Assembly: GCA_963924565.1 (NCBI GenBank)
Contig: OZ004610.1
Coordinates: 33,914,001-33,978,000 of the forward strand
DNA: 64,000 nucleotides
Reading direction: 5' to 3'
Origin: Ascidiella aspersa
Taxonomy: Eukaryota
In this document: one piece after another, positions 10,053 to 54,363 of the stretch
Position numbering within the stretch: the first letter of the stretch is position 1
Layout of the letters: every line of letters begins with the position of its first letter
Translations under genes and position numbers: made by a program
The notes under the pieces: generated by a model
Database searches by the model: none
The model's input: only the letters and a program-made list of their open reading frames with translations
Told to the model about the DNA's origin: nothing

Positions 10053-11921
10053 TTAGCTTTGCTGAATATTTTTAACGAATTCGTTTATTCTAGTTAATCT
10101 ATGGTAAACATTAAAAGTTAACCAACCTGAATCGTTCTGCTTTTGCTCGTTAGCGTTGACATCAACAGCCGGTCGTTTTGCTTCAAGGTGACATACTCCA
10201 TTAGCGCTCGATTTGGTGGTCGTTTGTGCGGGTTTGGGTGAGGCACTCCTGGAGTTCTTAACCTCTTTCGCCGCCGGAACGCTAGACTCCTTGGAGCGGC
10301 CCTTATGCGTGGGTGGTGAGGCTGCGAAGGTAACTGTACGCTTGCCAGTCGCTGCTGCCTTGCTGCTGGTCATACTTGACGCTTTAGGGGCGATTACTTC
10401 TTGCGCTGGGGTGGGGGAGCGCTTCTTCTTTCTAAACGAACCGATAATGCTGTGAGCGGGCTTGAAGTTAGGGCCCGCCACCTTGCGGAAAAGCTTGGCG
10501 GCGCCGCTGTTCCCGGACGTCTTGGTCTTCTCCTGGACCACAGCCTTGGCGGGCAGAGGGGGTGGAACCGCCGGAGCCAGGCGTTTGGCCAGGAACGCCT
10601 CGCAGTAGTCGGCACTGCTCGACATTTCACTGCTGCTGGTTCCGCTTAAACTGCTTCCACTTGTGTTTGACGATTCACTGCAAGTTGTGGTTCCGCTGCT
10701 TGAATCTGTGGCTGTCGTTGCGTTGCTTGCTGTTGTAGTTCCACTGCTGCAACTATCGCTACAAGCTGGAAGCATCTTAGGGTAGGGGATGATCTTCTGA
10801 CGGATGCTGCCGTACTCTGCCTTGATTGACTTCTCATCATCAGCGTCTTCACCAGCGCTGTGTGAATCCTCACATTCAACATCCGAAGCTCCTGTGCTTG
10901 TGGTTCCAGTTGATGTCGTCTCATCTGTGCTTGCTCTATAGCTAGGCCTTCCCTGGCGCCTTGACTTTGATACGCGTCCATGGCGCCGGTTCCTGGACCT
11001 ACGGCGCCTGCGACTTGACGACTTTGACCGACGCCGCGAGTTCTGGCAATAAGGGTAGTGACTCACGTTGTGTTTAAGTCCGCTGGGCGATAGGACGTCG
11101 TTTTGGTCTGAATGCCCATCGGAGTCGTCCAACATAAAGGATCGCCTTCTGTGCGGGTTTCTTCTTCTGTAGTTGGTGTACTCGCGGTTGAAGTCCTTAT
11201 TGTCGAGCGCGCTCTGTATGAACTTGCTCTTCCCGCTGTGGTGAAGTATACAGTCGGGTCCTGTAACAACTCCATCCACAAACTGTTCCTCGCTGAGGGT
11301 TACTGTTGTAACGCGCTCGTTGTCGACTTGCTTGCGGGATCTCGAGGCCTCTTTTCCCGCAGAATCGCTCCCGGGTTCCCCGATGTCCAATCGCCGCAGG
11401 CTCTCGCTAGTTTCCACCGTTGTCTCCTTGGTGTGCTGGATGAGGACCGCGCGCTGATACTGCATGATGTTCCTTCTAATCCTTCTCTTCTGCCCGTGGG
11501 AAAGCTTGTGAAGGAACGCCATTGCTTCCGGATGTTGAGCGCTCATCTTCTCGATCATGCTGTTGTACTGATTATCCTGCTCCTTAGTCTCACGGTATCT
11601 CGTGTGCTTGTTCTTCTTGAGTGAGAACTTCACATGACACTGCTCTTTACCCCAGGCTTGCCACACAGCCAGGATGCGGGTCCTTGGAGGAAGAGCCTTC
11701 TCACATCCTCTCCAGGACTCCACGACCACGTAGTTCTGAGCCAGCTCCTTCAGTGGAGTGTTCTCGTTGACTTCAAACTCGTCTCCTCTTGTATCTCCAT
11801 CGCCTCGCTCCACTTTCCTGTCTTTAAGTAGAGCTTGAAGAACGTCCGAGCAAGTTGTTCGACGAGTCAATCCCGATATCTCCTTTTCTTCGCGACCAAC
11901 GCGAACCGTAATGCAGGACAT
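10053..11921 (-). CDS. RASSF9/10: N-terminal Ras-association (RA) domain protein, RASSF9/RASSF10-like; large coding exon (622 codons to the in-frame stop, probably spliced at 10127)
   Basis: Only long ORF in the window (636 aa from TTG 11963; first ATG at 11921). The N-terminus ITVRVGREEKEISGLTRRTTCSDVLQALL...YVVVESWRGCEKALPPRTRILAVWQAWGKEQCHVKFSL matches the RA-domain pattern of RASSF9/10 (EEK.V.GLT+RTT..DV..ALL...E.WRG.ER.LPP.TRIL..W.AWG.EQ..+.F.L). It is GC-rich against AT-rich flanks. A donor-like CAG|GTTGGT at 10127/10126 coincides with the switch to AT-rich sequence, so the true C-terminus may lie in a later exon. Confidence 0.88.
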   Translation of the reverse strand: MSCITVRVGREEKEISGLTRRTTCSDVLQALLKDRKVERGDGDTRGDEFEVNENTPLKELAQNYVVVESWRGCEKALPPRTRILAVWQAWGKEQCHVKFSLKKNKHTRYRETKEQDNQYNSMIEKMSAQHPEAMAFLHKLSHGQKRRIRRNIMQYQRAVLIQHTKETTVETSESLRRLDIGEPGSDSAGKEASRSRKQVDNERVTTVTLSEEQFVDGVVTGPDCILHHSGKSKFIQSALDNKDFNREYTNYRRRNPHRRRSFMLDDSDGHSDQNDVLSPSGLKHNVSHYPYCQNSRRRSKSSSRRRRRSRNRRHGRVSKSRRQGRPSYRASTDETTSTGTTSTGASDVECEDSHSAGEDADDEKSIKAEYGSIRQKIIPYPKMLPACSDSCSSGTTTASNATTATDSSSGTTTCSESSNTSGSSLSGTSSSEMSSSADYCEAFLAKRLAPAVPPPLPAKAVVQEKTKTSGNSGAAKLFRKVAGPNFKPAHSIIGSFRKKKRSPTPAQEVIAPKASSMTSSKAAATGKRTVTFAASPPTHKGRSKESSVPAAKEVKNSRSASPKPAQTTTKSSANGVCHLEAKRPAVDVNANEQKQNDSGWLTFNVYHRLTRINEFVKNIQQS

Positions 11922-11990
11922 CTTGGACTTTTTTATATATTTATTTGAAAATTCTTCTGACAAACTTTCGTGCTATTCAGATTTTCCTAG

Positions 11991-23894: not shown

Positions 23895-24118
23895 AAGTTT
23901 TAAATGCGATATAGAAGTAGGTAGCATTTTAAACGTTTTTAATATAAATGTTAGACGCAGGAATTTAAAATCCCATATAAATGAACGTAATTTTTTTTTC
24001 AAAATTGAACAGAAGCTGAGGTAAGATTTCAAAAGTTTCGAATATCTCTGTTAAAAATTAATAAAGAGGTATTCGAAACTTTAAAAATGCTACCTACTGC
24101 TTTATAGCATTTAAAACG
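23895..24118. mobile_element. Foldback-type MITE family A, palindromic variant
   Basis: ttttaaatgcgatatagaagtaggtagcattttaaacgttt is inverted against aaactttaaaaatgctacctactgctttatagcatttaaaa, with the family core aataaagaggtattcgaaac. Confidence 0.75.
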
Positions 24119-53305: not shown

Positions 53306-53641
53306 TCAGTTTTATAATTAAATGTGCCAGAAGCAACAAGAAATGTAAGGCACCTTTTTTCATTTTTAGCGCTTACAACCAATTTTTATAGAAAGAAGGG
53401 CGATTTCGCATAAGTTTTACTTCAAATTTTTACCAGATCCGTATATTTAAAGCGGAAGGCTTGGTTTTTATAGCACAATTTTTCGTTTTTCTTCGAAAAA
53501 ATTGAACCCCTTATTTGTACAGATTGCTCAGCGAGGCCTTAGCTGGTTTGGAAGACACACACAATCACACATATACGCTAACAATCTAGTCCTCCTAAAG
53601 ATGATTTTTGATCAAAGATTACGGCTTACGTTCCATTCCGG

Positions 53642-53794
53642 AAGCTATCGAAGACTCACCGCATCTATCGATTGATGGTGAAGCAAGACACTTGACTGAG
53701 GTCGTAAGTTCGAACCTCACTGCAGGCTAATTGTTAGCCTGCCTTGCTTGCATCATTGATCGACAGATTCGGTGAGTCTGCGATGGATTAGCTT
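53642..53794 (+). ncRNA. Candidate structured RNA or palindromic SINE/MITE: ~42-bp stem closing a three-way junction with two short hairpins
   Basis: Arms 53647-53687 and 53743-53784: by eye 35 WC pairs, 3 G-U, 3 mismatches and 1 bulge, extended by aagcta/tagctt. Loop hairpins tgaggt..acctca (53697-53719) and gcaggctaa-ttg-ttagcctgc (53722-53742). B-box-like GTTCGAACC at 53708. Confidence 0.45.
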
Positions 53795-54192
53795 GTTTGG
53801 TTTATATGTCGTTTTATATTATAAACAAAGCAAAACGACTAATTATACTCCGATTAGCCAATTCCCACTAATTTGTGCAACATTTATTATGTCACATTTG
53901 AACGGCATTTAGATTCTGCTGCTATCATTAATTAATTTGTTGGTTCTGGTTAGTTAAATTTGATGTGGGATTGTTACTGCTTTCTTGCAGATTGCCCCAT
54001 TTAATGTCTAGTGTGCTCCATTTGTGCGAAATCTTTAGTTCGGATTCCTTATTGGTCCGTTTTTGATTTAATTATGTTTTGCGAACACATTTTTTTTTCT
54101 TTGTTGCTTAAAAGACAACGATACGGAATTAGAACGACAGCTTATTTAGTGCATATTTTGAGTTGTGTGGAACCTATTAAACCATTTTGTTG

Positions 54193-54363
54193 CTTTGAAG
54201 CATAATGGCTGGAGGTTGTAGTTAGGCGTAGAATGAATATTAAAGCCCATACAGAAGTGGGTGGCAGTTTTTGAACGTTTGGAATAAAAAAATGAATATA
54301 GAGGTATTTGAAACTTTTAAAATGCTTCCTGCTTCTGCATAGGATTTGCTATTCTTATTACAA
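54193..54363. mobile_element. Foldback-type MITE family A (subunit-core-inverted subunit)
   Basis: ctttgaagcataatggctggaggttgtagttaggcgtagaatgaatattaaagcccatacagaagtgggtggcag...aaaatgaatatagaggtatttgaaacttttaaaatgcttcctgcttctgcataggatttgctattcttattac. Confidence 0.85.

Follow-up and report, generated by a model that had tools for sequence, protein, structure and literature searches.

The hairpin predicted within a 64,000-nucleotide stretch of the Ascidiella aspersa genome (contig OZ004610.1; hereafter, the window) is very probably a decayed head-to-head insertion of a tandem, tRNA-headed, protein-less repeat with a unit of 348 to 354 nt, likely mobilized by a Penelope-like element (PLE). Rather than a new structured RNA, the locus holds a decayed, ordinary copy of an unusual and recently active family, and its hairpin is a by-product of inverted integration rather than a functional unit. 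The original prediction had offered a Pol III-transcribed hairpin RNA or a small mobile element with a tRNA-like head. The tRNA-derived, Pol III-type module and the small mobile element are both upheld by the analysis, but the hairpin as a functional unit is not, and nothing supports its suggestions that the locus encodes a miRNA precursor or ribozyme or contains a CORE domain.

The hairpin, its inner helices (53697-53702 with 53714-53719 and 53722-53730 with 53734-53742), and the resulting three-way junction were all found where they had been placed. The element itself is larger than first described, spanning 53552-53787 plus its duplication (Table 1). Its two arms belong to the same repeat family, lie in opposite orientation, and share one 13-bp target-site duplication (TSD). 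The long stem, which has 6 mismatches and one 1-nt bulge, exists because the two arms overlap in family sequence. We infer that priming at the left target end gave rise to the inverted arm, whose best non-self match is 79%, and that priming at the right target end gave rise to the sense arm, each as a cDNA. Truncation has removed the true A box and the D arm from this copy, which is likely inert. A tRNA scan of the 64-kb window was blank because the 5' half of the tRNA-like module is missing here. The B-box word proved to be the T loop of a genuine tRNA-like module. The proposed A-box-like word (53676-53686), by contrast, lies in the inverted arm and arises only from private changes of the locus copy, and the CORE-like word (53683-53696) is a chimera formed across the inversion junction.

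Table 1. Features of the locus copy (window positions) and of the family unit (m positions, numbered from the tRNA start)
Feature	Position	Strand	Remarks
Left target-site duplication, 13 bp	53539-53551		12/13 identical to 53788-53800; family median 13 bp
Inverted arm	53552-53687	-	Family unit from end site A (~m243) back to ~m95, tail included; ~22% diverged
Long stem, 5' strand	53647-53687	+	All 7 differences from the family consensus lie here
Inversion junction, 3 nt	53688-53690		CORE-like word runs across it
Sense arm	53691-53787	+	Family unit m37 to ~m140; stops ~10 nt before end site B
tRNA-like module, 3' half	53691-53727	+	Part of anticodon arm, variable loop, T arm, acceptor 3' strand; by family alignment
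B box (T loop)	53708-53716	+	
9-bp family hairpin after tRNA module	53722-53742	+	Competes with acceptor stem
Long stem, 3' strand	53743-53784	+	41/41 aligned bases equal the family consensus
Right target-site duplication	53788-53800		Pairs with 53539-53551
Unit: tRNA-like module	m1-74		RF00005, 54-55 bits in young copies
Unit: 9-bp hairpin, T5 loop	after tRNA module		Overlaps acceptor 3' strand
Unit: body	hairpin to site B (m149-153)		
Unit: tail	site B to site A (m243-251)		~95 nt
Unit: stretch from site A to next tRNA			~100 nt

The element had been described as isolated. Within the window this is correct, as no other copy occurs there, but genome-wide it has hundreds to thousands of relatives. 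A search with the locus returned 2,172 candidates, of which 40 were scored; one family 16-mer has at least 896 exact genome matches (control, 0), and a motif of a second subfamily, S348, has at least 357 (control, 0). The unit measures 353 to 354 nt in subfamily S354 and 348 nt in S348. Units are arranged head to tail and differ by 0 to 1 base each in the S354 arrays checked, which hold up to 8 units; an S348 array contains 12 units of 348 nt. The arrays are circularly permuted. Elsewhere, a 43-nt tandem repeat (L238, 1325-1643) includes a 20-nt piece of the family tail.

Insertion anatomy was tabulated for 67 loci, taken in chromosome order from the listed 16-mer matches on contig C1 and yielding 69 insertions after 3 duplicates were dropped and 2 places skipped. 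The family is heavily 5' truncated, and 29 of the 69 insertions are inverted, with the tail at one end only. Two fixed end sites, A and B, lie ~95 nt apart. Outer 3' ends fell at B in 55/98 cases, at A in 29/98, and at neither in 14/98 (84 in the two site intervals versus ~14 expected), in a sample biased toward B-ended copies by the requirement that every insertion contain the 16-mer. Where both ends of an inverted copy could be classed (n = 20), 18 paired A with B, 2 paired B with B, and none paired A with A (p = 1.7e-4); a further 9 inverted copies have an unclassed end. Duplications of 11 to 18 bp flank 29/69 insertions, compared with 4/150 controls. Exact duplications of at least 10 bp (median, 13) were found for 21/27 S354, 17/27 S348, and 13/26 PLE-a copies (PLE-a is the candidate partner discussed below), and the duplications are AT-rich (74 to 79% AT). 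Both outer ends of inverted copies are 3' ends of the tRNA-sense strand; thus, that strand is the inferred RNA, with one cDNA primed per target end. On anatomical grounds, the paired fixed ends correspond to the "tail" signature of PLEs. The accessible text of PMC8557442 describes PLE insertions whose arms are tandem or inverted and of which only one end bears a tail, and two internal start sites with extension of both target strands have been reported in vitro (PMC11167929). Published PLE tails measure 30 to 40 nt, compared with ~95 nt in this family.

The two arms of the locus copy have diverged unequally, at 23/104 columns on the left and 10/97 on the right (p ~0.01 on hand-counted events), a gap that one event from one RNA does not account for. 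The unequal arms could reflect the use of two templates in a single event or conversion at a later time. Derivation of the left arm from a divergent subfamily was rejected (of 529 candidates, 40 were scored and none exceeded 79%), as was ADAR-type editing, the changes being mixed and including only one A-to-G. It is improbable that the locus instead records an old minus-strand insertion joined by a separate, younger plus-strand one, or later gene conversion of one arm, in a family that is still PLE-mobilized. That reading gains from the confinement of all 7 stem differences to the left arm, from the lack of a close relative of that arm among those scored, and from inverted copies elsewhere whose arms carry differing subfamily alleles. 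Against it, a single duplication encloses both arms and none surrounds the right arm alone. Moreover, inverted insertions with paired A/B ends make up 29 of the 69 sampled, far more than chance double hits would give, and the arms of young inverted copies agree at 29/29 sites.

Different subfamily alleles in the two arms were observed at four inverted insertions (L209, 8/22; L235, 4/6; L236, 4/6; L136, 6/19), with a weak or absent duplication at three of them. The alleles at these four loci hint that a single insertion event may have drawn on two RNA templates. Besides the locus copy, several inverted copies have arms that are unequal or that differ in subfamily alleles.

Under the preferred reading, a PLE-mobilized head-to-head insertion, the PLE RT-EN would nick both target strands ~13 bp apart, and tRNA-sense RNA would be copied into two cDNAs, one started at A and the other at B. 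Both cDNAs would end at near-random points and then join, their overlap producing the long hairpin. Stops at the tRNA start numbered 2 versus 4.2 expected in one set of 86 segments and 3 versus 1.8 in another of 38. Copying of linear Pol III transcripts that begin at the tRNA would make cDNAs run off at this position, and no 5' pile-up is seen there; the template was thus probably a circle or a multimer and not a linear monomer made by Pol III. A circular template specifically is conceivable but somewhat doubtful. Weak excesses of 5' ends at site B (12 versus 4.7) and near the hammerhead relic (10 versus 4.2) are not clear across 24 bins. Each of three long arrays carries its own variant in all full units, and these variants are missing from the other young units listed. 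The pattern would fit repeated copying of one unit via a circle or strand transfer and would fit later DNA-level expansion alike.

In young copies, the tRNA-like module scores 54 to 55 bits against RF00005 (gathering threshold, 29), and ARAGORN calls it in every unit. The two subfamilies differ at 0/74 module positions and at 51/280 positions elsewhere (p = 3e-6); m98-150 is also close (3/53 differences). Module exchange could contribute to this similarity. In a set of 180 distinct modules, the sixth acceptor pair is C-G in 100, U-G in 38, and U-A in 29, and the seventh is A-U in 97, G-U in 31, and G-C in 29; each pair thus shows two compensated states joined by wobbles. The hairpin pair 75-88 is U-A in 129 and C-G in 25. 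Because these compensatory changes represent few events on the tree, they are suggestive only of a conserved cloverleaf that looks selected. In the predicted fold, the 9-bp hairpin displaces the acceptor stem when m75-97 is included; the hairpin's T5 loop is 5 nt shorter at the locus copy. The anticodon loop is noncanonical: position 33 is C rather than U, and the anticodon, a four-box type with G34, is not the same in all subfamilies. G34 is rare in eukaryotic four-box tRNAs. A functional decoding tRNA gene was rejected because the canonical anticodon loop with U33 is missing.

A 138- to 139-nt sub-unit of the family, running from m289 to m79 and made up of the leader and the tRNA module, is multiplied in tandem, at times within B-ended elements, at C4 33025500-33028700 (L366) and C6 30073500-30197400 (L367 to L369). 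It has at least 119 exact motif matches, those listed grouping in the outer few Mb of contigs, and it bears the other compensated acceptor stem.

An ordinary LINE-dependent tRNA SINE inverted at its 5' end by twin priming would likewise have A and B boxes in a tRNA head, TSDs of variable length, and a truncated 5' end. SINE2 elements start at the tRNA head and end in a LINE-type A-rich or simple-repeat tail. The family has two fixed internal 3' ends and neither a poly(A) nor a simple-repeat terminus, its inverted arms overlap rather than abut, its arrays are permuted, and no run-off is seen at the tRNA start. We therefore consider this origin very unlikely, and the anatomy of a tRNA-derived SINE (SINE2) was rejected despite the A/B-box module.

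Equally remote is co-option of the hairpin at this locus as a structured RNA (an endo-siRNA or miRNA source or a Pol III RNA). The shuffled-sequence check proposed with the original prediction does place the fold beyond chance: the plus strand reaches -79.6 kcal/mol (z = -11.1) and the minus strand -75.1 kcal/mol (z = -9.9), with 0/200 shuffles as stable in either case. Co-option would also draw on the right stem strand, which has 0 changes in 41 nt, and on the closing pair of the small hairpin, which has changed on both sides. However, the two strands fold almost equally well, and the excess of G-U pairs once taken as a hint of RNA-level selection (3 on the plus strand versus 1 on the minus strand) is not significant (p = 0.63). 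The left strand decays without compensation, the A box is lost, and the suggested Rfam comparison returned nothing of note over the element. The hairpin junction varies from copy to copy, and 40/69 sampled insertions have no inversion; thus, the same hairpin is not kept across copies.

Many genomic copies with TSDs, which the original prediction would have taken for an ordinary MITE, do exist, but the element is of a tandem retro type with a Penelope end signature; a DNA transposon bounded by terminal inverted repeats, such as a MITE, to which an inverted repeat, high copy number, and a TSD would point, is hardly credible, as on its left side the inverted part stops short of the terminus, with 95 nt of tail beyond it, differs among copies, and is absent in 40/69, and as the TSDs range from 11 to 18 bp and 5' truncation is heavy.

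The genome contains many young PLEs with a C-terminal GIY-YIG domain and minimal hammerheads. All sampled PLE families have paired short and long ends, with 12- to 15-bp duplications in 13/18 pairs; as such duplications are common to all of these families, they do not single out any one as the partner. Tails measure 30 to 39 nt in two families, which we take from their protein motifs to be Neptune-like and Poseidon-like, and 79 to 104 nt in a group containing PLE-a, longer than the published 30 to 40 nt and comparable with the ~95 nt of the tRNA-headed family. A long-tail PLE is the likely partner. PLE-a has an 816-aa RT plus GIY-YIG frame, young copies, and end sites ~80 to 85 nt apart that are paired in inverted copies. 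Among 7 PLE families, it alone resembles the family unit, at 26/30 nt just upstream of site A and of its own long end. This match was reached in 1/400 shuffles for S354 and for the majority consensus; for S348, it was reached in 82/400 and is not significant. Weak collinear similarity reaches back beyond site B. A family profile scored ~9 bits on the PLE-a motif (E ~1 in 1.06 Mb), among the top non-family matches. Based on these sequence comparisons, PLE-a is the best candidate for the enzyme source, a somewhat favored but not proven one; the true partner may be a sibling PLE outside the sample.

The other six of the 7 families were rejected as partners because their similarity was not significant after flank trimming, and the signal of F154 was inflated by flanking DNA. 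No N-terminal-endonuclease PLE (Naiad) was present among the GIY-YIG matches inspected, in a search not designed for Naiad. PLE-a also occurs as a 3,422-bp tandem unit with a minimal hammerhead (L151, C1 40.947 Mb; L276, C2 30.63 Mb), and short PLE-a copies often have their 5' ends at the hammerhead (u392-418). Two loci, L171 and L172, lie on small contigs (C11 and C35), and L172 encodes a bacterial-looking GIY-YIG protein, presumably of UvrC type, which points to a co-assembled microbe.

A type I hammerhead is absent from each unit: a scan of three family consensuses on both strands for the canonical motif found none and detected the positive control, PLE-a. This absence rests on the motif scan because Rfam is blind even to the PLE-a hammerhead. 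S348 keeps a 7-nt 5' half core, with the second core motif and stem III broken; both cores are gone in S354. Since both subfamilies have near-identical young copies, canonical hammerhead self-cleavage is not needed; a noncanonical ribozyme is conceivable. The unit at m259-349 aligns weakly to the PLE-a hammerhead region (2/300 shuffles for the majority consensus and 168/1000 for S348). The element may have originated as an end fragment of a PLE that first acquired the tRNA module and then lost its hammerhead to decay, a history that we regard as evenly balanced. More speculatively, and on balance unlikely, a retrozyme lineage could have swapped its hammerhead for the tRNA-like module, which would supply a promoter and a processing signal, with host tRNA enzymes releasing single units and ligating them into circles. 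The hairpin would then toggle the acceptor stem, and the PLE would roll around circles from two start sites, sometimes on two RNAs. If true, retroelement RNA would here be circularized by the tRNA machinery without any ribozyme, and the remains of the dead hammerhead could still be recognized.

Genes are not entirely lacking from the window, although the element had been placed in a gene desert: ~42 kb away, a 639-aa open frame on the minus strand (10056-11972) encodes a RASSF8-10 RA domain at its N terminus (Pfam E 8e-8). A separate, abundant AT-rich repeat occurs in ~10 copies in both orientations, with some inverted pairs, between 8650 and 61266 (e.g., 23897-24117 and 54192-54363) and is unrelated to the hairpin.

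LINEs are known to have SINE-like parasites, and PLEs to have hammerhead retrozymes; a parasite of PLEs with a tRNA head and no hammerhead falls between the two. No description of a tRNA-headed PLE parasite was found in the open-access literature searched, and Repbase-type supplement lists could hold one unnamed. Insertions of this kind can pass for novel hairpin ncRNAs and for tRNA genes. Because its young copies are nearly identical, its TSDs are intact, and a candidate partner resides in the same genome, the family offers a 350-nt substrate for several PLE questions: the use of two start sites, one per target end; the use of one or two RNAs; and tandem regeneration without self-cleavage.

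Compared with known systems, the family behaves like a non-LTR retrozyme or like the non-autonomous elements of Chlamys, yet it is neither a retrozyme (no hammerhead) nor a SINE (no head-to-tail-end anatomy). Animal non-LTR retrozymes, in the accessible text of PMC7229834 and bioRxiv 10.64898/2026.07.22.740005, are likewise protein-less tandem units (150 to 450 bp, TSDs >4 bp, a few to a dozen units) with a proposed PLE origin and mobilization, and the unit described here, without an ORF, 348 to 354 nt long, and with duplications >4 bp, matches that tandem-unit definition. They are defined by a type I hammerhead per unit, whereas this family has none (a half core in S348 only) and carries a tRNA-like module; the word "tRNA" is absent from the accessible text of the preprint (bioRxiv 10.64898/2026.07.22.740005). 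[quoted passage not shown] They differ in being green-algal, in depending on a partner with an N-terminal endonuclease, and in having no tRNA module in that text; the candidate partner here has a C-terminal GIY-YIG domain and its own hammerhead. The schistosome Sm-alpha and Sj-alpha elements also combine a Pol III promoter with tandem units, on whose arrangement propagation depends, but their hammerhead is active, and the accessible text of the review (PMC6765202) reports no PLE tail or paired-end signature. The accessible text of two further papers (PMC4209133 and PMC9977147) was drawn on for this comparison. Unlike the autonomous EN+ PLEs of the PAc mechanism (PMC11167929), the family has no ORF, a tail of ~95 rather than 30 to 40 nt, and an internal tRNA-type promoter; it shares with them the inverted 5'-truncated arm, the one-end tail, two internal start sites, extension of both target strands, and AT-rich targets.
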